From Conidiobolus incongruus B7586 (taxonomy: Eukaryota), in NCBI GenBank assembly GCA_000697335.1, contig JNEM01011368.1, positions 1 to 33,783 on the forward strand: a DNA stretch of 33,783 nucleotides. Reading direction: 5' to 3'. The translations under genes were made by a program, and so were the position numbers. Of the stretch, positions 3,644 to 33,100 are shown in pieces (position 1 is the stretch's first letter; every line of letters begins with the position of its first letter). Under the pieces are notes generated by a model, which was not told the DNA's origin, made no database searches, and saw nothing but the letters and a program-made list of their open reading frames with translations.

Positions 3644-3695
3644 ATATTATAAAAATAATATTATAATATTATAAAAATAATATTATAATATTATT
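3644..3695. repeat. Tandem duplication of a 22-bp AT-only unit
   Basis: ATATTATAAAAATAATATTATA at 3644-3665 and 3666-3687, plus a partial third copy. Confidence 0.6.
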
Positions 3696-3999
3696 TTTTT
3701 TTGACCTATTAAAACTTTAAAATATTAATATAATTCTATATAATTAATAAAAAAGAACAGATTAAAAATTTTGATGAATAAGTTAAATTTCAAATTATTT
3801 AAAATTATTTTCACTAAAAATTTGAAATAGATAAATAAATAATATTCAAGTAAATTAAAGATATATTAATATTACAAAAATTTCAAAATTTTAGTATATT
3901 TTAGGTTATTCAGTTATAATATATATTTTTTATTTTTTTATTATTGTACTTAGTAATTCTTATAGTTTGAAAGGTTTAGTTTTATTAACATTTCAAAAG

Positions 4000-5170
4000 T
4001 TATTCATAATACCAAATCCTCAATATTCTTATCAATAACACTGCTGAATTAAAAAAATTAAAATATATTATGAATAAGTTGAATTTAAGTACTTGGAATA
4101 TTCAGCTGAAAGTGCCTCCCAGCGTCAAGTCTACGATTTTGAAAGAGCTGAAGTTGAATCACAGTGCGATATTCAATTATTTAAGAAGGACGATACAGGC
4201 TGAGAGGTTGAAGGTTGTGATGGGTGGAGAATTGGGGGAGAGTTTTCATAATAATTATCATATGAGTAAGGAGAATTTGGTCTAGTATGGTTTGGTTGTT
4301 GCGAATCCGAGTACGATTAAGGATATTACTATTGGTAAGACGCATTTAGGTCAGGATATTCGAGGTGTTGTGATTACTAATAATATCGAGTCTAAATTGA
4401 CAAATTGAAGCCAAAATTACTAATTCATGGGGGTCAACATGCTGGGGAGTGAATTACAGTTTCTTCCGCTATGTTTTTTAATTGAGAAATTTATCAACTC
4501 CAAGTCCAATATTTTAGATATATTTCAGATTATTCTGATTCCTATTCTGGACGTGGATGACTACGACTATATTTAGGATCAGGATCGATTTTGGGGCATG
4601 AATAGACAGAAAGATCCCAAATCCAATCATATGGGAATTGATCTCAACCGGAATTGGGGCGAGCATTGGGCGCCATCCACTAGGAATCGCTGTAATGAGA
4701 TATACCCTGGGAGTGTAGCTTTTTTAGAGCTCATAATCAAAGCTTTATCCCAATTTATTTTAGATCAGAATAACTTGATAAGATATTTGAATTTGCATGC
4801 GTACAGCCAAGCTTGGATGTATCTGTTCAAATATACTTGTGATCCCAAATTGAAAGTTCAAAATAAATAATATGTGCTATCTTACCAGATGTCGCTTTCT
4901 CTAGCTGAATTTTGAAATACAAAATATCATGAGTTTGGACTTATTTGCAATACAATTTATGCAGCACACGGCAGTTCTGTGGACTAGGCCAATACTCAAG
5001 ATAATATCAAATATTCATCTACTATTGAATTAAGAGATAAAGGTCATTTTGGCTTGTTTTTAACTTAGGGACAGATTATTCCAACTGGTAAGCAGTTGAT
5101 GAGGGGATCGATGTGCTATATTCAAAAACTTAAGCCACTAGTTTATAAGTTTAAAATCGTAAAATATTGA
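4000..5170 (+). pseudogene. Zinc metallocarboxypeptidase (M14A, carboxypeptidase A/B-like) pseudogene; 5' boundary approximate
   Basis: M14 motifs appear in order: HGGQHAGE* (HAREW-like, TGA 4450-4452), DYDYI*DQDRFWGMNR (TAG 4574-4576), GIDLNRNW, CNEIYPGS, LHAYSQ, IYAAHGSSVD* (TAG 4985-4987) and TIELRDKGHFGLFL...QIIPTG. There are multiple stops and frameshifts. Confidence 0.9.
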
Positions 5171-5358: not shown

Positions 5359-6225
5359 TTAAAACTTGGCAATAAAGCCCAATCCACCATTTTCGAGACG
5401 ATGGATGGTTTCCGCGACCATTTCCTGTCTCAACATAGCGTAAACACTACCTCCCACGACCATTTTAGGGGCAACAGCTTGAGCGATTTCCTTAGCTTTT
5501 GATAACACTTCTTTCTCAGGAGCAATAGCATCTACTAAATCATTTTCCAAAGCTTCATCAGCTTTAAAGCGATGACCTAACATCAATACCTTTCTAAAGG
5601 TGGAGAATTTGGGGATCTTGCACTGAAGGACACTGGACATACCAGGGGAGAGTGGACCAGGAATGTCAATTTCATTCTAATATAATCATTTAATATATGA
5701 AAAATATCTATAAATCATATTAATTTACCATGCATAAATATCCTCTATCGGACCTCATAACTCTAAAATCATGAGCCATACTAAAAATCTAATACAAATA
5801 AATATGTATCATATAATACAATATTAAAAACAACTTACAAAACCTCCAGCAAATGCGTGACCATTAATAGCAGCAACCGTGGGAATTGGAAATTTCAACA
5901 TAGTAGCCATTAGTTTATGATACATAGCAAAGAAAGGTTCCATACCCACATCTCCAATAGCTTCCAAATTCAACCCATTAGAAAAGATATGCTTCTGGCC
6001 AGTTGTCACCAAAGCTCTGGGGCGTTCTTCCTTTTCGCGCTCATCCCAATAGTGTTTGGCAATGTCGTCTAAAGCTTTTTGGATTTGAGGCATTGATTGG
6101 GGATTGAAACGGTTGTCAGCTTTTACTAAGTGGAGAATATATAAATCACCTTCCATTTCAACCCGACATATGGTATCGTCACCAGCGTTAGGAGGATATG
6201 AAATAGGGAATTGAATAGATGACAT
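5359..6225 (-). CDS. Crotonase-fold enoyl-CoA delta-isomerase/hydratase-like protein, probably peroxisomal (~254 aa; exons 6225-5839, 5788-5729, 5676-5359)
   Basis: Motifs FSNGLNL and PIPTVAAINGHAFAGG|IFSMAHDFRVMRSDRGYLCM|NEIDI. Two GT-AG introns of 50 and 52 nt restore one frame. The C-terminal AKF resembles a PTS1. Confidence 0.9.
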
Positions 6226-7477
6226 TTTTTAATATTATTCTAAATGAATTTTAATTGAATAACTTTGAATTAATAAAAGTGAATTAGAAGGTTTTTATAA
6301 TTTAAAAATTAATTAAATTGTCTCAATATCATATGCTAATTAATTAAATATTCCTAATTTGTTTAAATTTCAATCATATATAAATATATTATCAATAAAA
6401 TTTTGGAATGAAAGTATATACAAATTTGACAGATATTTTTATTAATCAAAGAGATATAAACAAACTTTTATAATAATATCTTAAAATAGTGTTTATTTTT
6501 TTGTAATGAATAAAAGCATTCGAATAGCAATGGAGTTAATTTAAAACTATTCTACTTGAATAAAAAATTCGAATTTAAAACAATTGAGACAAAAATTAGT
6601 TCAAAATTATAATGAACAAATTTTTGGTATTTAAGAGAATGTTAAATCATTTTGATGAAGTAAAATAATAAAAATAACGATATGATAATTATATTCAATA
6701 TTGAGGTTAGTGAATATAGTATTATATTTATAGAAAAGTTTTTAAAATTCTGGGAAAGAAAACATAACCAATAGAGATTACTTTTAATAGTTACTTAAAG
6801 AATTTGATTAAGAACTTTATATATATATGTATAATATAAATTTCAAATTCAACTAAAACAAAAAATAATCACCTAGGTCAAATGAACTGAGGATCATATA
6901 TGTGCTAGACAAGTTTGGTAATCAACTACATTACGAGACTTTATTTTGCATTTCAATATTCTGATGATAATAGTTGATATTCATTGTCACTTTATTTTTA
7001 TAAAAACTTTTCTTGAACATTATTTAAATTTTTTGAGCAATTCAGTCTATAAATATATATATATCATTTTATATTTAATCCAATTATACATTTCAGAATT
7101 ATTTAACCTATTGCTTTTATTGAATCAACATATTATGTTTATTACGATTTCATATTAATAATCTTTAATATATTTTATAACAATTTTTAAATATTGAATA
7201 TATATATATATATATAGATTCCCTATTAATCTTTAACTCCAATTAGTGAATTAATTTAACCTATTTATATAACATTTAATAAATTAATGTCATTAAAATA
7301 TATTTAATTTTTATAAATAATAATTTATTTTATCAAAAAACTAAACAATATACTTTATAAATTCTATAATAATAAATTATTCATAGTATTAACTGTATTA
7401 TTTCTAATTTCATTTACTATTCAACTATAAAATTGAAATTTTCTAAAAAATTGTGAAAGGACCAGTGTTCAAGATAA

Positions 7478-7908
7478 TGATGGGGAATAATCTTGTCTAT
7501 CACTCAAGAAACTCTGACTATTGCACTAATGCAAGAAGTTACATTGGAAGTACCTCATTTTATGAACTAGTTCAACTTATTACTTTCTGTCTGAAGTTAT
7601 TCATAGCCACCTAAACTCAGCAATTGAAACTAATATAAGATTATCACAAGCCAATTAATAAACACTTCTTCCTATCTTCATTTTCAAAAGTATCCAGTCT
7701 CTAAGTTTTTCTTGTAACACTTACAAAAGTGTTGAGTTGTGACAAGTGTGAGATATTTTATTTGAAGAACCCAATTTGCAGTAAGCTAATTTCACCTAAT
7801 TTAGTGAACCCCCTTAATTTCCCTTAACTTTGTGGTAACCTATTGTTTACCACTGGCGATTTCCTGTTTAAGCTCTAAAGTCTATTTCTCCCACATTTAC
7901 AGACGTCA
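7478..7908 (-). mobile_element. Solo-LTR-like dispersed repeat, copy A (orientation given relative to copy B)
   Basis: Its reverse complement aligns along its length with 24014-24450 (shared blocks AATCGCCAGTGGTAAAC, GACTGGATACTTTTGAAA, GTGATAATCTTATATTAG, ACAAGATTATT). Termini are TGA...TCA. It is flanked by ATAA at 7474-7477 and 7909-7912, a candidate 4-bp TSD. Confidence 0.75.
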
Positions 7909-9398: not shown

Positions 9399-12300
9399 AT
9401 GTTTACTGAAAGTGTATCAATTCTTGGAAAAGAATCTATTTTCGTTGGCTATGATTTAATACCAACGATAATTTCAAGTTTATCAAAAGAAAAATTCAGT
9501 AAGGTAGTATTAGTTACTGATCAGAATTTAGCCTCTTTGTACCTTGAACAATGGAATTCCCAATGGGATCAGTTCTACTCTCAACCTGAAGGAAATCAAG
9601 CTCATAAAGAATTTTTTACTTATATCATTCCCCCTGGCGAAGGAAGTAAATCAAGAAAAGTAAAAGCTCAAATAGAAGATTATTTACTTGAGCAAGGATG
9701 TACAAGAGACACATGTTTGATTGCGTTTGGGGGTGGAGTTATTGGGGATTTGGTCGGTTATGTTGCTGCTACTTTTATGAGAGGTGTTCCAGTTATTCAA
9801 GTTCCTACATCCCTATTAGCTATGGTTGATAGTAGTATCGGTGGAAAAACTGCAATCGATACTCCTCACGGAAAGAATTTAATTGGCGCTTTCTGGCAAC
9901 CTCTTGCCGTTTATGTCGACTTGAGTCTTTTACGAACTTTGCCACAACGAGAATTTTTCAATGGAATGGCTGAAATCATCAAAACAGCTGCTATAAGCAA
10001 TGCAGAAGACTTTGAGTTATTAGAGGTAAAGCACTTGGATATGTATCTCTCTGTCTATCCTGATTCACCTAATGAATTTATCGAAGGTAATACAATTTTG
10101 TATTTTTAAATGATTTTGTGTTTATTTTATCAGTCTTAATATTTATTAATAGTTTAAATGATATACTAATATTAACAATTTTCAGGTAAAAAGCTACTTC
10201 AAAAAGTAGTAGTTGGTTCTATCAAATTTAAAGCCCATGTCGTAACAGAAGATGAAAGAGAAAGCGGATTGAGAGGTTTACTCAATTTTGGTCATAGTAT
10301 TGGACATGGTATCGAAGGACTGGTATCCCCTCATTTGCTTCATGGCGAATGTGTTGCCATTGGTATGATTCAAGAAGCTGAAGTTTCCAGAAGTTTAGGA
10401 CATTGCTCTCAAGCCACTATTGCACGTCTTACCAGAGTATTAAAATTATATCAACTTCCTGTTTCTTTAGATGATCCAATCGCTTCAAAGAGACTTCCCA
10501 ACCAATTGAAACATTTAAAAATTGAAGATTTGATGCGAGTCATTAAAGTTGATAAAAAGAATATTGGAGGAAGAAAAAGAATTGTGTTGCTTGCTAGAAT
10601 CGGTGCCACTGTAGAATTACAACCTACTTTCGTTGATGATTATCTTATTGAAAGAGCAATGGCTCCTGCCATTCAAATTCCCAAGTCTTCTCTTAACGAT
10701 ACTTCTGCTGCCGAAATTGCCGTCCCAGGTTCTAAATCTATTTCTAATAGAGCTTTAGTATTGGCTGCTCTTGGTCAAGGGATTTGTAGATTGAAGGGTC
10801 TTCTGCATTCGGATGACACACAAGTCATGTTGGAGGCATTGAGATTATTTGCAGGAATCCAGTATCAATGGGAGGATAATGGTTTAACCCTAGTTATCGA
10901 AGGATGTGGCAATCCTTCCAAATTTGTTGTTCCATCAGTTCCTCTTTACTTGGGTAATGCTGGAACAGCTTCTCGATTCTTGACTTCTATTTGTTGTTTA
11001 GTTCCCCCACAAAATCAACCAGATTCTAATGAAGGTCTTATACTAACTGGCAACGCACGAATGAAGCAAAGACCCATTGGTCCTCTTGTTACAGCACTAA
11101 GAGAAAATGGTGTCGATATCAAATATGTGGAAAATGAAGGCTCTTTACCATTACTTATCAAGCCATCGGCTGGGGGCTTTGCTGGAGGTGAAATTAGACT
11201 TTCTGCGACGGTTTCATCCCAGTACGTCTCCTCAATCTTAATGGCGGCTCCATATGCTAATAAGGAAGTCGTGTTAATACTTGAGGGTGAACATGTCATT
11301 TCTCAGCCTTATATTGATATGACTATAGCTATGATGAAGAGCTTTGGTGTTAACGTTGAAAGGTTATCCGAAACTTCTTATAGAATTCCTGTTCAATCAT
11401 ATGTAAATCCACCAGTTTACCAAGTAGAGGGTGATGCTAGTTCCGCTACTTATCCTCTCGCTCTTGCTGCTATTACAGGTCGTCAAGTTACTGTAACCAA
11501 TCTTGGTAGTGAGTCTCTTCAAGGTGACGCGGGTTTTGCTGTTAAGGTTCTTAAGCCTATGGGATGCCAAGTTACCCAAACTGCTTACACCACTCAAGTG
11601 CAAGGCCCTCCAAAAGGTCAACTCAAATATCTTCCAGATATTGACATGGAGACTTTAACTGATGCCTTTTTAACTGCTTCAGTACTTGCAGCTGTAGCTA
11701 CTGGTCGCCCTGATGATGCTCCTGCCGATCAACCACCGGTTACCAATATTAGTGGTATTGCCAATCAAAGAGTTAAAGAGTGTGATAGAATTGCTGCCAT
11801 GGTCACAGAATTAGCTAAATTCGGAGTGAAGAGCTGGGAGCTGCCTGATGGTATTGCCATTCAAGCATCCCGATATGATCAATTAAAAGCTCCTGTTGAA
11901 GGGGTTCATTGCTATGATGATCATCGTGTTGCTATGAGCTTCAGTATTTTAGGTTGTATCGTTCCTGATACTATTATTAATGAAAAACTTTGCGTTGGAA
12001 AAACTTGGCCTAACTGGTGGGACGATCTTAGCCGCTGCCTCAAAGTCACTGCTTATGGTGTTGAAGTTCCACGTCCTATTCACAAGTTAGAAAGATCTAT
12101 TTCATCTCAAAATCCCAGCATCTTTATTATTGGTATGCGTGGAGTCGGAAAGACTACATCTGGAAAGATAGGTGCTAGCCATTTGAATATGGACTTCATC
12201 GATCTTGACGAATATTACCAGGAAGTTTACCAAATCTCAGTTAGAGAAACAGTTGAAAAAGAAGGATGGGAGGTGTTCAGAGACAAAGAACATCGATTAT

Positions 12301-14336
12301 TATTAAAGGTATTGGCTGAGTTCCCTAATAATACTTTAATTTCTTGTGGTGGAGGTATTATTGAAATGGAAGAAAACTGTAAACTCCTCATAGATTATGG
12401 AAACAATGGTGGAATAGTTTTGCATCTCAGAAATGATGATATTGAGAGTATTGAGCAATATTTAAATCGAGATATTTCAAGACCTGCTTATTCTGGTGCT
12501 GAAAGTATTCGAGAAGTTTGGAAACGCCGTTGTCCATTGTATGAAAGATGCAGCAATTATGAGTATAATATAATTAATCCAAGTTTGGATAACTGGAAAT
12601 TGGTTAAAGTTGATTTTATTGAATTTTTAAAGAATATTAGCAACCCAAGACCCATTCCTGCTTATTCACCCGATATTTCAAGCTTTTTCGTTTGTTTAAC
12701 TAGTCATAATATTTCTGAGGTCAAGGAACAATTAACAAATATTATTCAAGGATGCCAAGCTGTTGAACTTAGAGTTGATTTACTTAACCCCCCTAATTCG
12801 CCTAATGCCCAAATCTTAGATTTTAGCACTGAACAAGAATTGTATACCTTCGAAAGATATGTCGCTTTACAAGTAACTGAATTGAGACACATTGTTAAAA
12901 AGCTTCCTATTATTTATACGTTAAGAACCAAGAGTGAAGGAGGAAGATTATCTAATTCTTTACCTTTACCTTTCTTGAAGAGATTATTTAAACTTGGTTT
13001 CCAATTAGGTTGTCAATTGATTGATATTGAGATGAATCTTGATGTTCAACAAATTTTGTCTGATTTACCCAGCTTTCGAGGAACTTCCAAAATTATTGCC
13101 TCATTTCATGACTTAAATGGTCAGCTTGATTGGGGAGAAGCTAATTGCTACGAAAAGATTAAACAAGGATCTTTGTATGGAGATATTGTCAAATTGGTTT
13201 CAGTAGCTCAAAATATGGAAAATAACATGAAATTAGAGAGTTTTTTGGGCGATTATTATTCGAAATTATCTCAATTCAACAACATTCCTTTGATTGCTCT
13301 TAATATGGGTTCTAATGGACAACTATCACGTATTCTAAATAGATATCTCACCCCTGTAACACATCCTGCTCTTCCTACAAAAGCTGCACCAGGCCAATTA
13401 ACCGTTCAACAAATCAATTATGCTCGACATCTTTTAGGTTTAATCCCTGCTAAAGATTTATACTTGTTTGGCACTCCCATCTCCCAATCACCATCTCCTT
13501 CAATACATAATAGCTGGTTCCAAGCTCTTGGATTTCCACACAAATACCAACTCTGCGAAACAGATCAAATCGATGTAATGAGAAAGGTTGTCCAAAGTCC
13601 AGCTTTTGGTGGGGCTAATTGCACCATCCCAACTAAAGAAATTGGTATAGAACTTGTGGAAGAACTTTCAGAATCAGCTAGAATAATTGGTGCGATCAAC
13701 ACAATTTATTGGGGTGATTCCCAAGATAAAAAGAAACGTATACTCAAGGGAGATAACACTGATTGGCTCGCATTATTCAACAAAATCAACGAAAAACTCG
13801 AAGGAGACAAACCTGATTCTAATAGATCCGCTTTGGTATTAGGAGCTGGTGGTACTGCCAGAGCCAGTTTATATTCTTTATACAAGGCTGGGTTCGAGAC
13901 TATCTATTTGTATAATAGAACTCATTCTAAAGCCAAGCTATTAGCTCAGCATTTTGAAAAACTTTTCAAGATCATAGTAGTTGATGAAAATGTCAATATC
14001 GCTGATTTCTTCAGTAATAATTCTAACTCTCAAGTTAAACCGCCTCAGATCATTGTAGATACCCTACCTGGCTCTGCTCAAGTGTTGACAAATGAGCTCG
14101 AAACTGCTTTATTTAATTCATTTAACTCTCAATCTAGATCTAAAAATATAACTGTTCGTTTTGCCTATGCCAAATATCCAAGTAAACAGTCTACCCAAGA
14201 AGCAAGTTTAATTTCTGCTGGGGATTCTTCTAACAAGGATTCGAATTCGATAGAAGAAATTACTGGTCTTGAATTGTTAAGGGAACAAGCTAAATATGGA
14301 TTCCAATTATGGACTGGTATTTTCCCTGAATATTAG
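9399..14336 (+). CDS. ARO1: Pentafunctional AROM polypeptide (~1612 aa; exons 9399-10086 and 10186-14336)
   Basis: DHQ synthase ([31 protein letters not shown]), EPSP synthase ([30 protein letters not shown]), shikimate kinase (GMRGVGKT), type I dehydroquinase (VELRVDLL) and shikimate dehydrogenase (GAINT, NTDW, GAGGTA). A 99-nt GT-AG intron at 10087-10185 joins the two listed ORFs in frame. Confidence 0.98.
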
Positions 14337-14569: not shown

Positions 14570-17265
14570 AAATTTAATGATTGCTATGCTAGTATGGCCA
14601 TTAGTCATAGTTTATTACCAACAATTGGGTTGACATTTTTTATCCATGGATCCTTTAAATTTATTTTTATCAAATAAAATATTTTATGTGAAATATTATA
14701 TAATAGTTTAATCGTTGATTACTTTTCCGAAATATGGTTCTATATCAAAACATTGCGATTGGTACAAGCTCATGATGTTACCAAAACAACAGGCTACAAT
14801 ATTAATTAAATTTTATTTGGTATATTTTGAAGGTATTTGTCCCCAAAAATCACTTGAAACTGAAATTCTACCTGTATTAAAAATTATTGGTCATGCTTTT
14901 AAATATTTTGAAATTATCCCTATTGATAGAGTCTATTTTAATGATGAGAGATGTAAATATATTTTTCGCTTCAATATTTGAATATTTAAAATATATTGCT
15001 AGTAGTTGAATGCATCAAACAATATGGTCTTAATGAAGATGTTCAAAAACTCCAACCTCATTTAACTTTAAAGTAACACTTAAAAATTTTATAAAAAATA
15101 TTGTTTATTTAATGTAGATATTATGGGTTGGCGGCTTTAGCATGACTATTCAAGTAAATAAAACACACAAATTACATTAAATTTAATAATATTGGTAGAT
15201 ATATGGAATTTTATATAAAAACCTTTTTCCCTCAAAGTTCTGAACATATTGTATGTACAGATGCAAAAGGTAAAATAATAGCTAAATTATGAGATCATCT
15301 AAATATTGGTTATGTAAGTTCTATGATAATTTGTAGTTTAATTTGAAAATAAAAAACTATTACTAAAAAATATTAGATCCGTATATTTGTGCACCAATGA
15401 AATCATTAAGAGATATTGATACTAATGCTTTTAAACATTATTTTTGAAGATTAAATTCCATTATTAATACCTTTATTATTTTTATTGAAAAACGATGCAA
15501 TAGACAATACCTCTACAAAAATGTGAGCAATGAATTGAATATTAGTATTGATATTCAATTATTAAAATGGTTTAGTCAATCACCTGAAATTCAACATTAA
15601 TCAATTATTAATTGGTGAATATAAATGAAATACAAATACATTTTCTAAATATATTTATACGAAAATACAGTGGAAACTAGACTGAACCGTATTGAAGGTA
15701 AGGTTTTAATCAAATTTAAAAATAAAACTAAATAATAACTTTGAATATTATCCTATCCCATTATGTAAACTAAATTGATATATCCATTGTTAAATTAAGC
15801 GATTATTTAAAAAATTATCAGTTTGATTAATAAATGTGCTCATAATTAAATCAAATTCAAAAAACAGCAGTTAATAATATCAAAGTTATTTGTATATGAA
15901 TCATTTCATGATGTAGATTTTATCAGGAAATATGCATTAGATATCATTTCAAATTTTAAAAGCCTAATATTTATATAGGCGAATAACGAAAACAGTTCAA
16001 TCAAGCATTTGGAACAAAATTTTATATTAGTTTCAAAAAATGGATTAGATTTAATTGCAAATATAATTCAACTTAAGTATATTTAAAAATCATTTGATTC
16101 AAAATATATATGAGATTAATAATATCTTTAAGTCGATTGTAGAAATATGAAATATGTATTGTGAAAAATACAGGAAATAATACAAACTAATCAATGAAAA
16201 ATAAATTGTCTATTAAATGTTTTTTCAATCGAAACCATTGGTTTGAATAACCTTTCTCAATCAAATAATCCAATATATATTATAAGGTTAATATAATTAA
16301 ATTCTTCATTAGGATAGGATTAACTTAAATAATGTGCAAATAATAGCCTACGATGCTGGTAATATAAATTAATTTTTCAGCCTGAAAAACTTATTCAAAA
16401 AATATTGATAATATATTTGCATTAGTCAATGAATATAAATGTATTTTTATGATCTATGCTTAACATATATTATAAACACAAAATTAGCTCAGCTCTCATT
16501 AGCATCTCAACTTAAATATATCACTAATTACGAGTATCAGATTCAAATTTCAAAAGTTCAAAGTCGTATTAATTACCTAATATTTTTCCAAGAGGATCTA
16601 AAAAAACAATATGGCATATCTAACAACCTTAGATATAATAGGACATTAAATAATATTGATCAAGTACAGATTATTCAATAGTCTGAGTTAAATGAAGGAA
16701 TGAAGCATTCACTTGATGAAGTTGATTTAATTTCAAATGAGTAATAGGAATTTTATCAACAGTTCTAATATTGAGTAAAATCAAACAAAATATAAGAATA
16801 TTATATAAGCTCCCTCAATCTATTTCATTCCTTGATATGATGGTCAGTTTCGCAATTCATGCTTCCAAACATTGTTTAGATATTTAGCATTTGAATATTA
16901 TTTCAATTTTTAATTATCGTTTATTGAAACTGATATTTGGGAAATACGACAATAAAAATTTCTGATATACAATTTTATATAGTGAAATTCAATCAAAATG
17001 TTCTCCAAACAATATATTATTCTCTTAGAATAAAAGCTTTTCAATCATAACTTGACCTACTATGAGTGGAAAACAATTTTCTTAAATCAAGTCACACTTG
17101 AATATATTATAGCAAAAATTAGAAGATAGTAAATATTTTTCAATTTTTCATTTATTAGTATCCCAGTAAAATTTAAAAATATCAAACTAAATAATCAAAT
17201 ATTAGATTATTATTCTCAATAATCTGAATTTTTATTCAAATTTATCATCTCAACAAGAGTTAGAT
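14570..17265 (+). pseudogene. MSH4: MSH4-like (meiotic MutS-gamma) multi-exon pseudogene; boundaries approximate
   Basis: Collinear fragments: IIPIDRVYFNDE; KYYGLAALA*LFK|YMEFYIKTFFPQSSEHIVC (15119-15270, with GT-AG introns); TVETRLNRIE; TYSKNIDNIFALVNEY; LYKLPQSISFLDMMVSFA (16801 onward). The ATPase region reads PNNILFS*NKSFSIIT*PTMSGK, then after a frameshift TIFLNQVTLEYIIAKI (17005-17125). These recall MSH4 KYYCLAAAAALLKYVE, LYKLSDTVSMLDML and IITGPNMSGKSTYLKQIAL. Confidence 0.82.
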
Positions 17266-17269
17266 TGAA

Positions 17270-18515
17270 TTTAATATATAAGTATAGAAATTAAGAAATG
17301 GCAAATTTTTTAATTTCTGATCTTTCAAACATATTATATATTCAATTTTAATTATTTATTTATTAAAATATTTTAATTTTAAAATTTACACTTAAATTTA
17401 ATTATGTTTAAATTAGATAGCAATTATTAAAAGGCTTTTATTTTTATATCTTTAAAACTTAACTATAAACCCTTTAAAATTATTTAAAACTTATAAATAA
17501 TTTATAAAGATATTATTTTATTTAAAACTACTATATATCACTAGATTTGTAATTTTAAAGTTAAAAGGAATATTATTTAAAATTTGTTAAAATTTAAAAG
17601 ATTAGTTTCTATTATTACTCTTTTATTTATTAATAATATAAAAAAATATTCAATAATATCTTTTTATTTTTGTTAAAAAATTATTAAAGTAATTTAATAT
17701 TAATTATATAAGCATATTATATATATTTAAGTTTAAACTTAAATTAATTAATAAAAATATATAATAAATACTTTATAATTTAACAAAAGCTTAAAAAAAA
17801 ACTAAAGTAACTATAGTTAAATTAAATTTATTAAGGTATAATTAAAAACAAAGGTTTTTACAAAAAATATTTATAATTAATAAATTTTAAATTTTTTTAT
17901 ATAATCTTTTACTTAAAAATAAAACAAAATATTAAGTTAAATTAATCCTTTTTATAAATTTTAATAAATAAACATTTTAAATACAAGTGAATGTTAATTA
18001 TTATAATAGATTATAATAGTATATGGTTTTTTTATTTAATACCTTAAGGAGAATTAATTAATAACAAATTATATATTATTTCTTTATATAAAATAATTTT
18101 TAAATAATGTTTTTAATATAAATTAAAGATATATATTATTTTATATAATAATTATAAAATATATAAAGTTATAAAAGATTTTTTATATAAGAAAATAGAA
18201 AAAGTTATTACATCTAGTATATTTACTTAATTATCACTTATATAATTATAATTGTTTTAAATAATTAAAAAAACAACTTATAAGAAAAAAATTCCTATAA
18301 ACAAATTAAATTAATTTATAAAATATCAAATTTTAATCCTTAATAAAAAAAACTATTTTTCAAATATTAAAAGCTTACTAAAAATATAGAAAAAAGTTAT
18401 TAATAATAAAAGAGGCTATTAATTTTATATTATTTATTAATTTTTATATATTGTTTATTAATTTATTTGTTTAATTTCAATTTCAAAATTGTAATATTAC
18501 TTTATATTAATATTT
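17270..18515 (+). mobile_element. Hypermutated mariner (Tc1/mariner, DD34D-type) transposon; transposase relic ~17404-18422
   Basis: Reversing C->T and G->A changes recovers mariner motifs in order. TTIYH*ICNFK...NLLKFKRL ~ W...F...DLPRSGRP (17527-17604); *ILYNLTKA*K ~ WIPHNLTEAQK (17765-17797); FLQKIFIINKF*IFLYNL ~ ..TIDE.WI..YDP (17855-17908); MLIIIIDYNSI...IP*GELINNKLY; ILYNN ~ ILHDN (18138-18152); *KKLLHLVYLLN ~ WE.LPHPAYSPD (18196-18231); NIKSLLKI*KKVINNKRGY* ~ GI..LP.RW.KVI...G.Y (18363-18422). Length ~1.25 kb. TIR boundaries are uncertain. Confidence 0.88.
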
Positions 18516-19792
18516 TACACCATACATTAAGTTCAAATTTGTTTCAAATTAAAGGATTTAGTTAAAATATTTGGTTTAATATGATATTAAATATTATTTA
18601 CTTTTTATCAATTTGGTATTTCTCAATATTTATTAAGATTATTGTTCACTGTATTCAAAAAATTAATATCTTCAAAGGTAATCAATTCTAATAAAAATAA
18701 GAATATATTAACTTTTATCATCTATTACATTTTTTTCAACACATTTTACTGGATCCTCAATTTATTTTTTGAATCATTCAACTGTAAACACTCCAAAGTT
18801 TAGCATTGTAGTATATTTTAATACCAATGACTTTTGAAATTATTATTTATTCATAAATAGAAATTAAAATTTCAGGGCAAAAATGTATCACTTAAAATTA
18901 TAATTTTTCCAGTGGATTTGAGCAAAAAAAGACATTATAGCAAGTTTCAAATGATTTTAAATTGAATTATAATTAGAATTTCAAGATTAAACTGACCAAA
19001 CAGGTCCGATACGATCTTTTATAAATGCAGCTAGTAGAATCTCCAATGAGATAACTATATATAAATTGGTTTCATAATATTAATAGAGATGTAATATTAG
19101 TCTTGACAAGGGAAATCTAGTTATACGATTTTTGTATAAAGCCAACAAAAATATTATAAAATATCAACATTCAAATATATAATGAATAAATACAATGTTA
19201 ATAAATACTCATGGTTTCAGATAGTATAATTTATATTATTAAAAAACAAAAATGGGCCAAGGATTAACAAGACCAAATTATTAATTCAAGCCAAAGATAT
19301 GAACTAATACACAATATAAGTATATATATATATATCTAACATGATTAACTTGTAGGCTTATCCTAAACATTTAAATTTATACTACATATAATTGGAAATT
19401 ATCTTTTATATATATTCACTAATATAGAAGCTTCCTGATTTGAAATATAGTTGTATGGTTATATATCGTAATAGTTATAGTATCAAAACTTTTTATGAAA
19501 CAGAGTACTCAATTCATCCCTCATTTTGAATTAAATCACTTAAAATTTATTGAAATAAGTTCAATTTCTTCATCAATATTAGAATACAAAGATAAATAAA
19601 GTCACTGTTTAGTTACATGTTAAAAGAGAAATTCGGTAAAGGATAATAGTATAACATCTATATTAAATAAATATTTAATTGAATATAAATAAACATTATT
19701 AATGGGAATTAATTTTTGTGATAAAAAGTTACACAAATATAAAATTTCTAGTATGTCAGGTTGATAAACGAAAGTTATTTAAAATAAATATT

Positions 19793-20283: not shown

Positions 20284-20992
20284 TATTTATAATCTTTTTT
20301 TAATTATTAAAATAAATAATAGTTAAAGGTTTAGTTAGATTTAATTATCTATTTAATTCAATTAAATGTAACAAAGAATTTATTTATATCTGGAAATTCG
20401 ATTGAAACATTTATAATATATTTTAATATTATAAAATTATGGGATATTTTGATCAATTTTAATCCATCAAAAATATTCTAGAAACTAAAAAAAGAATTGA
20501 TTTATAGAAATAAAGAATGATTTCACAAAAAAAATAGATTAACTAAAAAAATATACCTTATGTTTGAAATAATGCTTAGGGTGAATTAAAAATTTAAGTC
20601 AAATTATTATCTTAATATTACCGTTATATTTAAATCAAAGGTATAAATAAATATCTCACAATTGTTAATAAAAATATTTAATTACATACTGCTAATCAGA
20701 AAATTATGAAATTAAAAGGGTAAAAGAATCGATACAAAGTGTTGATAATATAAATTGTTTGATGAAAATAATTAATTTTAAACTAACCTTTTGTTTTTTA
20801 AATATTAATTATATATCAATTATTGAATAAATTAGTTTTAAGGAACTTAAAACCAGAAAATAGAATCCCATAAAAGAAAATTTTAGAAACAGAATATTTA
20901 TAAACTTTGTTAATTGAAAAAAATATGCATTAAATATACAAAAAAATTTATTCATTAATAAATATATTTAATATTAAATTGTTTTTTCGAAA

Positions 20993-22189
20993 ATGGTCAA
21001 AAAACATAATGTCCAAGTATCCGTGAATAACATCGATGGAACCCAATTTTCTGGTCCTTATCTCACTCCTATTTCAGGGTTTTTGCCTCCAAATAATATA
21101 CAATATCAAGGCTATTATAAGGATAAATCAGTTCATCAAAGAATATTATATGGCGAAAATGACAAAATGGAATATACTTTGAGCAATACTGGTTCCGATG
21201 CTCAATACGGCGTGAACAGCCAATATTTAGTAGGTATTTATGATCCTGAAACTAAATCTGTCACCTTTCAACCCGCACCTTTTCTCCACATGAATCGTGA
21301 AGTTAAGGTCCTTAAGACGCTTTCTGGTGCCAACGAAGCGGCCACCAAATCATATGTTGAATCTGTTGAAGCTTTGGGTCAAGAATTTGGTACCAAGAAG
21401 AAACGCTCTGAAATTGCCATGAAGAAGAAAAACACTGTTGATGTGTCTACCATGCAAAATGATTTGGATCAAATTTCAGGTTCTATTAAAGCTGAAGCTA
21501 ATCCAGAAAATTTGGATCCTCTTGTTGGATTCAAACAGACTCTTCCTACTTTCAGCCTTACTGCCAAGAATCCAGAAGATATTTACAACTTGAAGACTTT
21601 CTTCAACAACCAACTTTTAAACACTCTTCCAATTGGCAAGCTTTTGAATTGCACAGATCCCAAAGAGCTCGATCAGCTTATGACTTACCCTCAATCCAAG
21701 TTTTTACACGCTCATCTCAGCGAGCATTTGGGTACCTCTGGACCTAAGAATAAGGATATTATCAAGAAGCTCCAATTTATTGGCCTTATGATGAAATTAT
21801 ACAGTGCCTCTCGTGATGCAATCGCCAACCCCACTAAATTAAAGAATTTGTTCAAGAATTTCACCAGCGTTGGTGACGTTCTCATTGAGCACTTCACTGA
21901 AATCTCTCAAAATTTTGGAAGCAAAGCCACAAGAGTTTTGCCAGATAACTTGAAGACTAAGCTCGCATGCCACATCATCGTTATGATTCTCACCCTCAGC
22001 AACTATCAAATCGATTTGGTTACCCTTGCAAGTGACTTGAAGATCGATTTAAATCGCGCTACTCAACTGGCCTTCCTTGTAGGTTGTAAACCTGCATCTT
22101 TCGGTAAAGGCAACTCCGCCACTTCCAAGGTGTTCAAATTGGTTGCTCCTCTTTCTTTACAAACTGAATCCAAAAAGAGACGTAAATAG
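20993..22189 (+). CDS. RPA49: RNA polymerase I subunit A49/PAF53-like protein (398 aa)
   Basis: Intact ORF with QYLVGIYDPETKSVTFQPAP, LGQEFGTKKKR, LPTFSLTAKNPEDIY, KLACHIIVMILTL...LASDLKI...VGCK and LVAPL, plus a basic C-terminus. These are typical of the A49 family. Confidence 0.88.
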   Translation: MVKKHNVQVSVNNIDGTQFSGPYLTPISGFLPPNNIQYQGYYKDKSVHQRILYGENDKMEYTLSNTGSDAQYGVNSQYLVGIYDPETKSVTFQPAPFLHMNREVKVLKTLSGANEAATKSYVESVEALGQEFGTKKKRSEIAMKKKNTVDVSTMQNDLDQISGSIKAEANPENLDPLVGFKQTLPTFSLTAKNPEDIYNLKTFFNNQLLNTLPIGKLLNCTDPKELDQLMTYPQSKFLHAHLSEHLGTSGPKNKDIIKKLQFIGLMMKLYSASRDAIANPTKLKNLFKNFTSVGDVLIEHFTEISQNFGSKATRVLPDNLKTKLACHIIVMILTLSNYQIDLVTLASDLKIDLNRATQLAFLVGCKPASFGKGNSATSKVFKLVAPLSLQTESKKRRK

Positions 22190-24013: not shown

Positions 24014-24450
24014 TGACAACCGTAATTGTGGGAGAAAATAGACTTTTAGAACTTAAACGCGGAATCGCCAGTGGTAAACGATAGATTACCACAGAGTTAG
24101 GGGAAATTAATGGGGCTCACCAAATGAGGTGAAAATGGCTTACTATAATTCGGGTTCTTCAAGTAAAGTGAATATCTCATGCTTGTCATGACTCAATACT
24201 TTTGTGAGGGCTACGGGGAAAACTTAGGGACTGGATACTTTTGAAATGAAGATAAAATAGATATGTTTATTAGTTCATTCGTGATAATCTTATATTAGCT
24301 TTCATTGCTGATTTTTATGAATAGGAATGACTCAGTGATAGAAAGAAACACAACCACTCAGTTCAGGAAATGGGTGTTCCCCAATGTGACTTCTCGATTC
24401 AGTGTGGTAATCACAGTTCCTTGAAGGATTAACAAGATTATTTCCTATCA
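24014..24450 (+). mobile_element. Solo-LTR-like dispersed repeat, copy B
   Basis: GC-richer island running TGACAACC...TTCCTATCA, homologous in inverted orientation to 7478-7908. No clean TSD (TTTA vs GTCA). Confidence 0.72.
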
Positions 24451-24919
24451 GTCAAAATCATAAATTTTTTGGCATATTATTATAAGTTCTAATTAACTCT
24501 GATATGAAATGATTTAATCAATATTATTAAAAATAATATATAAGTGCTATATAAAGCTTGTATTTGGGAAATTGAAATGTCATTATTGTTTAATTATCAA
24601 TACTTGAATACTAATTTCATACAAATTTTAATTAATTCAATATTCAAAACATTTATTTGTATTTTTTGATATTCAATTATTATAAATTAGTCCATATTTG
24701 AAACTAATCAAAATTAGAGTTTGTAAAATTCATTAAAATATCCATATTATAATTTATACAATAGTAAATGAACCAATATATTAATTAATTGCAATGTTAA
24801 TTTTCATGCTGATGATCATTAATTTTAGCTGTCTTAATATTCAAAGTGGTGATTTGGTCCATTCCTTATTAAAATAAATTTAATATTTGGGAATTAATAA
24901 TTTTATTAATTCAATGGTC

Positions 24920-25970
24920 AATATGCAAGAAAATAATTTCCATTCTGCTGGGCCATGAACAATTCATAGTTCAGCTTGTATAGTGGTATGAAGATGGGTA
25001 TAGGACTTGCTAGGAAAAGAATGTAGATCATGATAGAATGGAGCTTGCTGATGATGCTGTTTTTATATTTGGTATTTCTGTGAAACCGGGCTATGATTAG
25101 ACCTAGAATGTGCTGGAAGAGGTAAAAGAATAGTCTAACAATTCTAATTCATCTTAAATATTGGCCAGGATGTTTTTTGCATCTGGTTCAAACTCACAAT
25201 TACTAGAAATATGATAAGAAAAACTGGTGTATCACGAGTCAAGACGGTGATGTGATAGATGAGCTATCTCTTGACAAATATTGATCTCAAAGATCAAACC
25301 ATCATTTTTTCAAAAAATGGAACAAAATTTGTTGCAGAGGTTATTAATACAACGTATAGAGAACCGTTAAATCCATTCGAAATCTCAAATTATAGTTCCG
25401 CATTGAGATTCCAAATTCGCTGCTCCATAGTCGTAAATTGAAAGTTTCAGAAATGTTTGATTCACCTATAATACAGTGCAACCAATATCTTCACAACTCA
25501 ATGTAATTACCTTGGATTGGTAGTAGCAGTATTTGGGTGGAAATACTTCGGGATATAATCACTTCCGTTAGAGTTCATTTGCATTTAACGCATCATGAGC
25601 TTTTGCACAGTTGTTTACATCACGGTCGAGTATAAAGCGAGAACAGTTTGGGGTGATCATAGAATAATTTTTACTGAAAGGATATTGATTATTAAGAGAA
25701 ATTAATTGAGAAAAACTAGTGCTTGTGCGATCTGCAACAAGGATGGAAGAGTTGGATAAAATTAATGCAGTTATAATGAGTAGGCATTGGTGCTATTTCT
25801 AGTCGAATGCCTGCTCATCAATTTCTAATTCAATATCTATATTATAAAATTTAATATAAAATTACTCAAGTTATTTTTGATTTCAGAGATCACGTTCAAA
25901 AAAGTATTATTGATTGTCCAAGTTTAAAGGCATTCATTGTTCAAAGAACAAATAGTTTAATCCAATAAAC
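24920..25970. other. GC-enriched decayed coding-like island of unknown origin
   Basis: About 1 kb with exon-like GC content but no long open frame on either strand (only a 60-aa ORF). I recognised no family motif. Confidence 0.35.
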
Positions 25971-26947: not shown

Positions 26948-27912
26948 ATGGAAATTGCTGTGAGTATTTTGGCGACTTCAGCTTCAGCAGTCGTAGTAGA
27001 TCTATAACTCATCCTTGTAAGTTGATAATGTGGATCCTTAACCCTTTAAATTAATCTGATTATTTTAGTGGATACAATTAGAACAAGAGTACAAGCGGGT
27101 CTTCCAGCGATCCCTTCCGCTCAAATTGATGGCTCCAAATCATTTACTAATACTTTAGCAGGTCTTTATCGTGGTTGGTCCATAGTAGTCCGATTTTCAA
27201 TCCCTGGACCCTCGGTGTTTTTAGGTGGTTATGACGCTTCAAAATATTTGTTGGATAAATATACTAATTTGAAATCGGATAATTCTTTGAATCATATGAC
27301 TTCAGGTCTTATTGCACAACAGTTTGCTCACTTAATATTTGCTCCCATGGAATTATTCAAAACTGTTTATCAAACTTCGACTCTAACGAAAGGAACGCCA
27401 CCTGTTCCTCTCACTTCTATTATTAGTCAAATGTACAAACTTGATGGATTTAAAGGAATATATCGTGGAGATTTGCTGGGTATGGCTGTCTATGTTCCTC
27501 ATATTATTATTTATTTTAGCGCTTATGAGAAATTTAAAACTTTATTGGGTTCTAAAAAGACTGGAAAAGAAGCTAAAAACTCAATGGCTTGGAATATTTA
27601 ATCGCATCATCCGGTGCCACAGCAATTGGTGTAGTATTCACGCACCTTGTGGAAGTAATTAACACACGATATCAAGTCGTCAACACCCAAACCTCTGTTT
27701 CTAACGAGACATCTTTTAAGAAAATTGAGCTCAGGCAGCTTGTAAAAACCATGCATTCAGCTTAAGGGCTGAGAGTATTTTATTCTGGACTGATTTTTCG
27801 TATTTGTTGGATGGCACCAAATACAGCAATGAGTATGTCTTTATATGAGCTATTCAAATCCCAAATTCTATATTATTTACAATCCTCATCATTTGATTCT
27901 ATTAAAATTTAA
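26948..27912 (+). pseudogene. Mitochondrial carrier (SLC25) pseudogene
   Basis: Three carrier repeats: HP|LDTIRTR across intron 27017-27068, APMELFKT and HLVEVINTR, with GLYRG, GIYRG and VFYSG. Lesions: a frameshift in exon 1 (~26995), a frameshift at ~27590 and an in-frame TAA at 27763-27765 where EG is expected. Confidence 0.85.
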
Positions 27913-28256: not shown

Positions 28257-30194
28257 TCAGGAACTTATATCAAAACCTAACTTGAGTGAAATACTCTTTA
28301 GCTTAGGCAATAAATCCTTGAAAGGGGCATAGTTTTGACTACTTAGCTCAATCTGTTGATAAATAATTTTGAGAGACTCTCTCATTTCTGGCTGAGCACT
28401 AAGTGGTAAGTGGGGATATTCTTGAAAGCAGATTGTAGCTGCTCTAATAATATAAATATATCGAAAACTAACAAAATTAGGAGGGTATAGTGCGGTAATA
28501 TGAGCCAATTGACGACTAGAATTGATCAGTCTTTTCATTTGACTTGAAGGCAAGGGCGAGGATGTATCTGAATTGGCGTGGGGTCGCAGAGAATTTACAA
28601 TAATACTAAAGGTCTTAAGCATAAGAACAAATCCCCACACAAATGGAGTGATAATCGAGTGGGCAGTTAGATCTGTATACTTGCGACTGAGATTGGTGAA
28701 ATGAGTCAATCCAAAAATATATCCGCAATCTAGAGAAATATTTACAATTCGAATATGTTCTAAAAGTCGTTCAGGAGAAATAATTTCGGTTGGGTCTTGC
28801 GGGGAACTCAGTTTCCGAATATGATAAGCAACAGGCAAAACAAACTTTTCAAGGATATATCGAAATAAATACAGGCATTTAGGTTGGATTTGGTCAATAA
28901 TATGGTTATGATGATCATCTTGACTATTTTCGGGACTCGAGTTAGGACTACATTTCTGGTACCAGAACATATGTTGGTTGGGTACAATACCATTTGGAAG
29001 GTCAAATTTATGAATAAAGCTTAAATTCAAAGGTATGTATCCGTTTTTAGAGATGATACCGGATGAAATACAGTTAGGGCTGTATTCAGTTTTTCTGAAA
29101 TATACCTCTGGGATGAAAGAATCCGTATTAAAAAATGAATTCCCAGAAATATCGAAAGATATAAGGATATTCCAAATATTGGCCCTATTCATTGTTCGAT
29201 CATATAAAAATTTAGGTTCCAAGCGGTGTAAGCCCAGACTGTAAGCAATTCGTATTGCTTGTGTGAGAAAAAATTTGCACAATGATATATTGTTGGAATA
29301 GCCTATGGAGTTGGCCATGATCATCATTGCATACATTAGAGGGAAACGGTCATTGTAGTACATTTTACTGATCTGTCTCAGTGAATATTCCTTCAAGTAT
29401 TGACAAAGAAAAGGATCCTGGTTCGGACGACATAAATATCCAATATAATACATGGCTGAAAGTAAACAAGGAGAGGTTTTTAAACGGTTTTGTTGAAATC
29501 CTTTAAGGTCGAAGATTGGGTAAAATATATGGACTCTATTGATATAAATATCAATTAGTTCATTCCAAAATTGAGGATCAAAAAGATTTTGAAAACTGTC
29601 GCTCTGAATTAGCTTGGACAAATGAGATCCTTCCAAATTTAATTCTGCGAGGCGGCCTTGAAGCTTCAAGAAGAAAGCCGAGCTATCGGGATTGGTAATA
29701 ATTGATGGAGTTGAATTAGTTTTTCCAACCAAAAAGTCAATAGACGAAGAGCTATGGGGTAATGACAATAATTCTTCTATCTTGCTTTTATCCGAACTGA
29801 GTAAAGCCAAAAGCAATTTCTTGCCTATAGGTGTTAAGTCAGTGTTAAGATTTAGTGAACTACTTAATTTAGATGAAGGTATATATTCAACTAATCTTTT
29901 TTTAGAAATCTGCATATCATTTCTTGGACTAGGTATACCATACTCTATTAAATGTTTTTGAGAGTTAATTATTTCATTTTGTTTAATTTCATTCAAATTA
30001 TATTGTGGTAAAGTATCAATGAAATGCGTCTTCTTCTGTTTTTGGCGACCTTTGAAATTATAATAACACGGAACTTTACGTTTTGTACAACGAATACAGG
30101 CAGGTAGTTGGCGATCGCATTTCACCCTTCTCTCTCTACAGTCAGTACAGGAAACGACGCTAACCCTCTCATTGACTGCAAACTGAACAATCAT
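28257..30194 (-). CDS. Zn(II)2Cys6 fungal transcription factor with middle homology region (645 aa)
   Basis: CTDCRERRVKCDRQLPACIRCTKRKVPC binuclear cluster. LIDIYINRVHIFYPIFD and QAIRIAYSLGLH...RANIWNILISFD resemble the fungal-specific TF domain. Confidence 0.92.
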   Translation of the reverse strand: MIVQFAVNERVSVVSCTDCRERRVKCDRQLPACIRCTKRKVPCYYNFKGRQKQKKTHFIDTLPQYNLNEIKQNEIINSQKHLIEYGIPSPRNDMQISKKRLVEYIPSSKLSSSLNLNTDLTPIGKKLLLALLSSDKSKIEELLSLPHSSSSIDFLVGKTNSTPSIITNPDSSAFFLKLQGRLAELNLEGSHLSKLIQSDSFQNLFDPQFWNELIDIYINRVHIFYPIFDLKGFQQNRLKTSPCLLSAMYYIGYLCRPNQDPFLCQYLKEYSLRQISKMYYNDRFPLMYAMMIMANSIGYSNNISLCKFFLTQAIRIAYSLGLHRLEPKFLYDRTMNRANIWNILISFDISGNSFFNTDSFIPEVYFRKTEYSPNCISSGIISKNGYIPLNLSFIHKFDLPNGIVPNQHMFWYQKCSPNSSPENSQDDHHNHIIDQIQPKCLYLFRYILEKFVLPVAYHIRKLSSPQDPTEIISPERLLEHIRIVNISLDCGYIFGLTHFTNLSRKYTDLTAHSIITPFVWGFVLMLKTFSIIVNSLRPHANSDTSSPLPSSQMKRLINSSRQLAHITALYPPNFVSFRYIYIIRAATICFQEYPHLPLSAQPEMRESLKIIYQQIELSSQNYAPFKDLLPKLKSISLKLGFDISS

Positions 30195-33100
30195 AATAGC
30201 ATTTAATAAATGTATTGATTAGATATAAACAAAGACTATGTGGCAATTTTATATTTGGTAATGATTTAATTAAAATTAATATTGATAAAATATATAAAAT
30301 CAAAATAATTCACTTTGAATAAATGAAACTCATTAATTATAATTAAATGTAAAAACTTAATTATTAATTCTTCAAAACAAGCAAGTTGATTGGATGATTA
30401 GGAACCAGTCTTTTTCTCATCTCTTAATCAAGTTGCCACATTTTTAAAATCATTTTGTTGTCACATTATATTATTAATTATTAGCATTACTTTTATCCAT
30501 TTTATTTTCTAGAATGCCCACTTCACTCCAGGATATGTTAAACTGCCTATTAATAGCAAAAACTCCTGATATATTTTTCAATTTAGAACCCATCAGATTT
30601 TGAAGTACCAAACGTACTTTGTAACACTTGGTGAACCTGTATGGTGCATGTTTCCAGTTTCAAATTTGCTTATGTTTTTTAATCAAAATTTAATTATATT
30701 TGAATTATCATGAACATCCGTTTAAATTATATTTTAGAACCTTGAAGGTGTATTGCTATCAAAAATATTTTTTTGTTGCTCAAATATTGGGAAATTTTTC
30801 GGGATTCAAAAGTAGTTTGTCTTAACTCAATAAAATCATAGCGATCACAGAGTAATTAAAGTAAATCTGAATTAAGATTATAGTGTGTGATAAGTTTAAT
30901 GATGCTGGAAAAATATAATAGCTTAAGAAAATCCATTTTTATTATTTAAAAATTCATTTGAACTTTGGGTTTGATGCTTATGAATGATCTAAAGTTATTG
31001 ATATGCTTATTTAACGTACAATACATTGTGTAATTATTATACATTATTGTTTGTTATAAAATAAATAAACTATCTGTATATTCAATGAATTTATTAGCTA
31101 TTAATATTTGAAACCATTCCATTTAATTAAATATAATTTAGAAATAAAATGAGGGTTTTGAAATTTTAACAACTATCCGAAAATTTTCCTTATCAACCAC
31201 TAATCTTTCATTACTTTCTGATTAATTTGCGGTTTTATTTACAGCAAATTTATTGAATAATTTAATAAACAAATTTAAATTGATCTGAATTCTAATCAAA
31301 ACATTGTATACTTCAATATCATGGTTTCATGGTTTCATTGTTCCATATTTGAAATATATTTCTTTGCAGATATTAATCATTTAGTGATCTATATTAAAGA
31401 GTAACCAGTATCCTAAGCAGTGTAATAAGAAATAGTACACCCAAACAGTAATTACAAATCAAACCATTTTGAAGAGTGTTTTGATATTTGAATCATATAA
31501 TCCAAAGTAATGGTTAAATGATCATATTTTGTTTCTCTTTATTAATTTAATCGAGTCATGGGCTACTTTCTATTCTGAACAAGCCTTTAACCGCTGATAC
31601 CATTGCTATTTGAAAATATTATAGTCTTTTTAGGTATATGATTTTGCTCTGTTTTGAAAAAACTTTAAATACTATTTCCTTATTATCTAAACTGGTAGTG
31701 TCACAAAATCAATATCTGGTCCTATATTCTCAAAAATTATCTCATAATTATATTCTAATATTGTTTGAACCATACGGATTAGCACCTCTAAGAATATCTC
31801 CTATCATGATGCTTTTAAGCTAGAACATTATTTTTAGATTCTATATCCATTATTTTCCAAATTTAAAATAAATATTTGAATATAATACAAAATTAATTAA
31901 TTTAATATAATCAATTAAATTTGAGCATATTAACTTTAGAATCTTAAGTTATTTTATCTCAATTTTAAGTTGTTTTAGAATAAGCCAATCAAAGCTCTGA
32001 TTGTATTCAATAGACTTATATAATGTTTAATCAACTTTATAAATTTCAGTTGAGAGTGAATAAATTAATATTCATCTATTAACTCGTTTGTTGATTTTTA
32101 GAAAGTTTGTGAAAGGACTTATCTTGCTTGTTTCCGGATATTGGATTCAATATTCAACTTGTGTAATATTCCATGATTAAATATTTAAATTATTACAACT
32201 GTACAAATATAGAATATATCATCTGATTATAACATTAAAAACATCTTATAGTTCCGTTTTCATATATTACTTATTATTTATACTTTAATTAAACAAATAT
32301 AATAGTATAGTAATTCGATACTTTATATAATTTTGTTAAATATACAAAGTGAGTTTATAAATGGTTATATGAAAGCTTGCTAGAAAATATAATAAAATCA
32401 ACGTCAGTATATTACAATGGATTTTTGTAAAATATTCAGCTAAATCAATGAGATACAGATTAAATTTAAAGATCGCATTATCTATTACTGCATGCGATCA
32501 AAATTAAACTATGTACATTATCGATTGCCACAAATTTGGCAGTATTTTAACTTTGACTCAGTTTTTAAATTATTTTCAACATTTCTCTACACTCACTAGA
32601 TATAAAAGGAACAAATAGCGAAGACAATTATAATATTGTGAAAAACAATCCCAGTTTAATTGATTATTAAAAATTTGAATAATTAGCCTTTGAAACAGAT
32701 GTAACCAAATATAATTGAATTTATTATTGAAATGCACTTTAAAATTAATGATTGAATAATTATTATTTTTTGACTAATTTGGTAAATTGAACAACATAAT
32801 AATTATTTTTTCTTATTTCAATTAGTTTATTAAAATATAACTTGAATTTATTCTACTTTGCCTGAATAAATAAAACATCAGGATCAATATTAAGTAAATG
32901 GATATTAGATTTATTTTTTAGATAATTCGACTTTTATTTTAAATTATTTAATATACAATAATTTTTGTTATGATACACAATAAATATTTAAAGTGAATAT
33001 TTTATAAATTTTTATCTATAACTGATATATTAAAATATTTTAAATCTATAATTCAAGTATAAATTTAAAATAATCATTATTTTGAGAAATTTCCACAGTT

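Follow-up and report, generated by a model that had tools for sequence, protein, structure and literature searches.

A mariner transposon of a Conidiobolus-grade fungus erased by C-to-T mutation on both strands, including non-CpG contexts

Introduction

Repeat-induced point mutation (RIP) of Neurospora crassa and other Pezizomycotina depends on RID and DIM-2 and converts C:G to T:A on both strands of repeats. The mariner element that we describe here, from a 33,783-nucleotide stretch of DNA (the window, analysed as a whole), resembles this system in its two-strand C:G to T:A change within a repeat, its preference for CpA, its positive composite RIP index, and the sparing of unique neighbours. 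Unlike in N. crassa, CpT and CpC are also heavily mutated, CpG is gone, and the host belongs to the Entomophthoromycotina.

In Zymoseptoria tritici, as described in PMC8016269, mitotic C>T mutation of repeats depends on Dim2, is raised more than tenfold, and needs no sexual cycle. The confinement of C>T to repeats, at roughly ten times the background rate, is like that of the window element; in the same account, however, more than 98% of the changes are at CpA and CpG is spared, whereas the element has a broad, graded spectrum in which 16 of 36 forced changes (those needed in the conserved codons described below) fall on CpC or CpT and CpG is absent. The CpG/TpCpG hypermutation of transposons in Pucciniomycotina is described as RID-less and tied to DNMT1/Masc2-class enzymes (PMC4352252); CpG is lost there as it is here, but most forced changes in the window element are non-CpG.

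RIP-like defence outside Dikarya is disputed. RIP has been proposed for Entomophthorales from dinucleotide indices, with major caveats stated by its authors and with RIP index values of 24.2% for Z. radicans and 2.4-5.7% for three relatives (PMC11105155), whereas a k-mer screen of 1,239 genomes scored all eight Zoopagomycota, C. coronatus included, as having no RIP (PMC12543289). The window element shares its subphylum and the proposed phenomenon with the former study, which is index-based as described; here one element is set individually against its sister copies and against pseudogene controls. The initial annotation of the window had presented a RIP-like process in early-diverging fungi as new; given the earlier proposal for Entomophthorales in PMC11105155, that novelty was overstated. 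Our literature search, with most subscription papers outside its scope, found no study that follows C>T hypermutation in Conidiobolus copy by copy.

Results

An intact ARO1 exon (10176-14336, plus strand) was used to place the host. Among 120 listed matches, the closest named one is from Neoconidiobolus thromboides (61%); the top-scoring match (P0001) is internally duplicated and has 46% identity. In a tree of 26 sequences, comprising the window and 25 of the 120 listed matches picked for spread, the window groups with Neoconidiobolus and Massospora at 100/100 and branches outside that pair. Because of this placement, and because a carboxypeptidase relic in the window is closest to Conidiobolus coronatus (62%), the host is a Conidiobolus-grade Entomophthoromycotina fungus, and the non-Dikarya host suspected from the sequence is borne out.

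The relic of a full-length mariner transposase gene occupies positions 17404-18422 on the plus strand, from an ATG at 17404 to a TAA at 18420-18422. These 1,019 bases have 10.6% GC and no CpG, and they contain 26 CA+TG (48.4 in shuffles) and six TCA+TGA, compared with 21.4±4.1 in 5,000 shuffles, none of which was that low; the scarcity of TCA/TGA noted initially is therefore real. It is also not a general property of AT-rich DNA in the window, as five other stretches with 13-16% GC have 26-46 TCA+TGA per kb, compared with 5.9 in the element. The hypermutated zone (no strand) has approximate limits at 17345 and 18475, 9.9% GC, no CpG, 5.3 TCA+TGA per kb, and a composite index of +0.64. Its edges are sharp: TCA/TGA are common up to 17342, number six up to 18476, and are common again beyond. 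The composite index in 1-kb windows is positive only at this zone in the whole window, with a peak of +0.67.

For identification, mariner loci were fetched with short motifs, and eight intact or partial ones were aligned into a 355-column profile, which was scored with a frameshift-aware codon model under alternative mutation processes, the null being given the same process. The mutation-aware profile scored 101-106 bits over columns 1-350 of 355, aligned to 17407-18419; 60 shuffles scored 18±2 bits (maximum 24.9), and the best of 52 other tiles of the window scored 21.6. The match is colinear, with the N-terminal HTH region and the WVPHEL-type and YSPDLAP-type motifs in order. The alignment contains 27 stops and five frameshifts, the frameshifts reflecting either decay or sequencing error. 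The region is thus confirmed as a dead copy of a mariner (DD34D) transposon, as the initial annotation had proposed. It is like the transposases of PF01359/PF17906 in its full-length colinear match and motif order, and differs from them in being dead and in an Asp spacing disturbed by indels. Terminal inverted repeats (TIRs) were not found: a purine/pyrimidine search for inverted repeats around the element did no better than shuffles. Conventional searches missed the element, including Pfam on three frames, phmmer against PDB (noise at E>1), tblastn with mariner seeds, and hmmsearch (best 3.3 bits). A motif derived from the window found two mariner loci, at most candidate relatives, in metagenomes, and a generic mariner motif had no match among viral contigs. 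One metagenome locus (L001), which matches PF17906 and PF01359, served only as a profile seed. Many of 16 further loci (L003-L018), on contigs in bacterial genome bins, carry mariner transposase frames, which are probably eukaryotic contamination.

The score depends strongly on the assumed process. Two-strand C>T/G>A gave 106 bits, a model with half transversions 78, C>T only 64, G>A only 36, no mutation 24, and C>A/G>T 22; only C>T and G>A on both strands explains the element, consistent with the earlier observation of both changes on the same strand. Fitted rates are 0.67-0.73 for C>T and 0.045-0.085 for C>A, with other substitutions at the grid floor of 0.005. Of the 66 conserved profile columns, 31 can be explained by C>T/G>A alone and 17 show no change; the other 18 call for a different change, as is partly to be expected from a distant profile. 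The 36 forced changes in the 31 conserved codons comprise 21 G>A and 15 C>T, and 56 C and 52 G are left in the element. Some 60-70% of the element's C:G pairs have become T:A, with both strands affected.

The triplets quoted in the initial annotation are in place. The WxPH linker motif (17765-17776, plus strand) reads TAA ATA CTT TAT, and in the profile alignment all three columns of the D, D, D triad read AAT. For the first (17879-17881) and second (18147-18149) catalytic Asp positions, both on the plus strand, the ancestral G and hence Asp is inferred from the profile only, whereas the third, at 18244, has G in about 27% of sister-copy depth, so the claim that Asp codons had mutated to AAT has direct backing at the third. 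This residue lies within the HPxYSPD..PCD motif (18208-18246, plus strand), identified from sister copies and the profile. The distance from second to third Asp is 97 nt rather than 105 (34 residues), with indels relative to the sisters at 18185-18202.

Sister copies came from contigs of four runs of one sample, in which the window occurs and which is possibly its own source, and cover 18168-18416 (249 bases); no RNA run was listed as containing the window, and three further runs (X5-X7) have next to no words in common with the window and were left out of the counts. Between 2,102 and 2,797 contig records per run match this region at a likeness of at least 80%, a cut-off that would miss intact copies and could admit unrelated AT-rich contigs. 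Their summed depth, which is not a copy number, reaches 110,000, compared with 20-31 for three contigs of 1.2-1.8 kb. The mariner family is high-copy and dispersed, and probably comprises hundreds of copies. The sisters hold C or G at 18208, 18209, 18224, 18229, 18238, 18242, and 18244, and in the C-terminal mariner segment (18294-18419, plus strand), which the sister copies identify, their letters restore Trp at 18312, Gly at 18363, and Pro at 18378. Together they give back the codons for the third catalytic Asp, the Ser and Asp of SPD, Pro, Cys, Gln, Trp, and Gly. Because sister copies directly show the restored letters, the ancestral codons no longer rest on motifs alone. The ancestral reading CAT CCA GCA TAT TCA CCT GAT stood in part: C at 18224 and G at 18229 occur in sisters, but CCA, GCA, and CCT (18214-18228) are absent among the best 40 of 105 variant rows.

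Transitions make up 68 and transversions 22 of the 90 place-kinds (kinds of difference counted by place) in run X1, and the sisters have G/C where the element has A/T at 46 places, so that 46 of 78 C/G were lost over the 249 bases. Among the best 40 of 105 variant rows, 37 are transitions, at sites where 12-98% of the depth carries the mutated base, in line with repeated mutation across many copies.

Mutation extends well beyond CpG, as initially inferred, since 20 of the 36 forced changes cannot be CpG (the other 16 could be). Survival of C relative to intergenic DNA is 0.24 at CpA, 0 at CpG, 0.73 at CpT, and 1.25 at CpC; relative to intact genes, CpC survival is 0.14-0.25, which is partly due to CpC being destroyed by loss of either C. 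At the trinucleotide level, survival against the intergenic background is 0.10 for TCA, 0.13 for CCA, 0.54 for ACA, and 0.41 for GCA (small counts), and TCC is not depleted. CpA is thus preferred over CpT and CpC; no CpG is left, so CpG is not rankable against CpA. We also simulated four starting genes under seven models that were set by hand and not fitted. Under the uniform, CpG-only, CpA-only, and CpA+CpG models, at least one of GC, index, and TCA count is wrong: with uniform C>T the index falls between -0.15 and -0.51 and TCA+TGA number 18-35 per kb, and with CpG-only GC stays at 26-37% and the index is negative. Only graded models, with CpG and CpA above CpT and CpC, reproduce the three together, giving 8-12% GC, an index of 0.65-0.88, and 6-10 TCA+TGA per kb (observed: 10.6%, +0.68, and 5.9).

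A pseudogene of an M14 zinc carboxypeptidase provides a neutral control within the window. It spans 4010-5152, the control part being 4238-5143 on the plus strand (Pfam PF00246, E=9.7e-45), and its fitted alignment has seven stops and two frameshifts. Against its best match, C. coronatus P0121, fitted C>T is 0.10 (0.07-0.13) and C>A is 0.005; fitted C>T in the intact ARO1 is 0.01. The pseudogene keeps 35% GC, 18 CpG, and normal CpA. Its 60 single-step changes comprise 33 transitions, 24 of them C>T/G>A, and 27 transversions, compared with 37 transitions in the 40 best-supported sister rows (p=4e-5; p=0.013 with all 90 place-kinds). The C>T load of the element (0.67-0.73) is therefore about ten times that of the pseudogene (0.10), in a comparison with relics that may differ from it in age and copy number.

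The left flank of the element is a second relic, a decayed MutS-family gene that spans 14700-17330 and has a stop at the conserved Gly of the Walker A region. Its ATPase segment with Walker A (17005-17123, plus strand) scores 38.2 bits against 15.3±1.6 (NCBIfam MutS, E=0.014), and serves as a compositional control without the signature: this flank has 22% GC and a composite index of -0.92. The fit covers 39 codons, too short for a substitution spectrum. By eye, the relic may resemble meiotic MSH4 and may continue to the right of the element, where TFFSTHF occurs near 18700-18750. The score for such a continuation is not significant (48.5 versus 45.6±2.5 bits) and database searches gave no match for it, and we therefore do not claim that the element was inserted inside the MutS gene. 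Of the subfamily searches for the relic, one gave no match and another gave two, which were unrelated tandem-repeat proteins and were discarded.

From the M14 and MutS relics, the baseline of this genome is rich in C>T but lacks the context signature of the element. An equal transition bias in single-copy neutral DNA, which the initial annotation had raised against its own reading, is not what the M14 pseudogene displays, with 10% C>T and with CpA and CpG kept. Confinement of the mutation to the repeat held up within this one 34-kb window, where the element is the only zone with a positive index and the pseudogene controls are negative. The accompanying view that the neighbouring genes are intact is wrong for the left flank and right for apparently intact host genes elsewhere: a GATA factor (490-1995), an enoyl-CoA hydratase/isomerase (5359-6228), the RNA polymerase I A49 subunit (20978-22189), a mitochondrial carrier (27050-27601), and a Zn2Cys6 factor (28257-30218). 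A stop-riddled, coding-looking region at 24800-25700 (31-34% GC), with no Pfam match on three plus-strand frames, is possibly another pseudogene, and positions 3651-3698 form a near-perfect A/T palindrome of 48 bases.

Other repeats in the window lack the signature. An inverted two-copy repeat (7478-7900 and 24022-24450) is 78% identical, with 51 transitions and 22 transversions, has 33-37% GC, and exhibits no TCA loss; the first copy has one CpG, compared with eight in the second, and a slightly positive index (0.14). Pfam had no match for the second copy. RIP has an identity limit of about 80%, to which this pair is close. At the window edge, a second piece, 33518-33746 (minus strand), resembles the 3' end of a related mariner and is more diverged than the main copy; it has 11.8% GC, no CpG, and a negative composite index. 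It scores 116 at the DNA level (47.8±6.1 in shuffles) and marginally (24 bits) with the protein profile, differs from the main copy by many transversions, lacks TCA loss, and is possibly of an older mariner subfamily. Given this piece and the repeat pair, not every repeat bears the signature. Positions 18953-19090 reach 28.5 bits with the mariner N-terminal profile under a low-mutation model (other tiles at most 23.8), which hmmsearch did not confirm; they are possibly an old, non-hypermutated mariner fragment.

Discussion

The outcome at this locus matches that of RIP, and the process may or may not be RIP in mechanism (homology pairing, premeiotic timing, RID). We lean towards a transposon-targeted mutator that is linked to cytosine methylation, other than RID, as the cause of the C:G losses. 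The host would mark high-copy elements, a DIM-2/DNMT1-class enzyme would methylate cytosine in them in more than one context, and deamination, whether passive or promoted by an enzyme, would fix C>T over many cycles and independently in many copies. Either a mitotic mutator of the Dim2 type or deamination of dense 5mC would account for these data. 5mC raises mutation about tenfold, and methylation-linked mutation, whether by 5mC or as in Zymoseptoria, could produce the roughly tenfold excess over the M14 pseudogene. In favour of this mechanism, PF00145 genes are described in all entomophthoralean fungi of the set in PMC11105155, and the repeat-directed mitotic activity of Dim2 is a precedent (PMC8016269). 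Against it count the C>T-rich baseline of the M14 pseudogene (24 of 60 changes), the 22 transversions among the 90 place-kinds, the repeats of the window that show no TCA loss, a spectrum broader than that of the Zymoseptoria mutator, and the scarcity of 5mC in Zoopagomycota reported in PMC11258239.

Genuine RIP would involve homology recognition of any long duplication, a burst of mutation at a sexual or resting-spore stage, and an analogue of RID. Such homology-directed RIP fits the sequence equally well: the two-strand transitions, CpA preference, index of +0.67, 10% GC, and sharp edges are what it would leave. Z. radicans reaches 24.2% by composite index and relatives have RID-like domain architectures, but the identity of these candidates to RID is 12-14% and the authors stop short of claiming homology (PMC11105155); C. 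coronatus has 555 1-kb repeat hits of 80-95% identity and not one of 95-100% in the supplement of PMC12543289, but that screen scored eight of eight Zoopagomycota as no_rip. RID is not reported in the lineage or outside Dikarya in PMC5751038, and meiosis in zygospores is described as undemonstrated in the group (PMC3734969). We therefore regard genuine RIP as possible and rather less probable, and a methyltransferase-linked mutator as likelier than RID-type premeiotic RIP.

The remaining explanations are all improbable, in differing degrees. The 5' pyrimidine preference (TCA and CCA survive less than ACA and GCA, on small counts) would suit a cytidine deaminase that acts on element DNA without methylation, which we consider improbable, as both strands are affected (with 56 C and 52 G left, and 21 G>A against 15 C>T among the forced changes) and TCC shows no depletion; a cut-and-paste element also has no cDNA stage. 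Slightly less probable still is that a very old element simply decayed under the usual AT bias. The genome is AT-rich, with some intergenic stretches at 12-13% GC, C>T is common in the M14 pseudogene too, and the element may predate that control; yet uniform C>T yields a negative index and three or more times the observed TCA+TGA density in simulation, the flanks and both relics retain CpA and TCA, substitutions other than C>T and C>A sit at the grid floor with only five frameshifts, and the proportion of transitions differs from that in M14. Such decay is largely refuted at this locus. Least probable is methylation decay limited to CpG, as in rusts and anther smuts, with which the absence of CpG and the 16 forced changes that could be CpG agree; the 20 forced changes that cannot be CpG, together with the high GC and negative index left by the CpG-only simulation, rule it out as the sole cause. 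The confinement of changes to CpG that the initial annotation had weighed against its reading is thus not observed.

This mariner locus adds evidence, at the level of single copies and sites, that C>T loss in Entomophthoromycotina can be strong, extend beyond CpG, and be confined to a repeat, to a debate in which an index study stands for RIP-like defence and a k-mer screen against it. Copies that escape Pfam, tblastn, and phmmer suggest that screens based on repeat annotation may undercount the process. The family also offers a target for testing methylation, homology dependence, and timing. A bolder proposal, possible but not the likelier one, is that Conidiobolus-grade fungi run true homology-directed RIP without RID, possibly without meiosis, and erase transposons past recognition by homology tools. 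If this were true, such erasure would explain the no-RIP scores in genome screens, and repeat-induced mutation would either predate Dikarya or have arisen twice.
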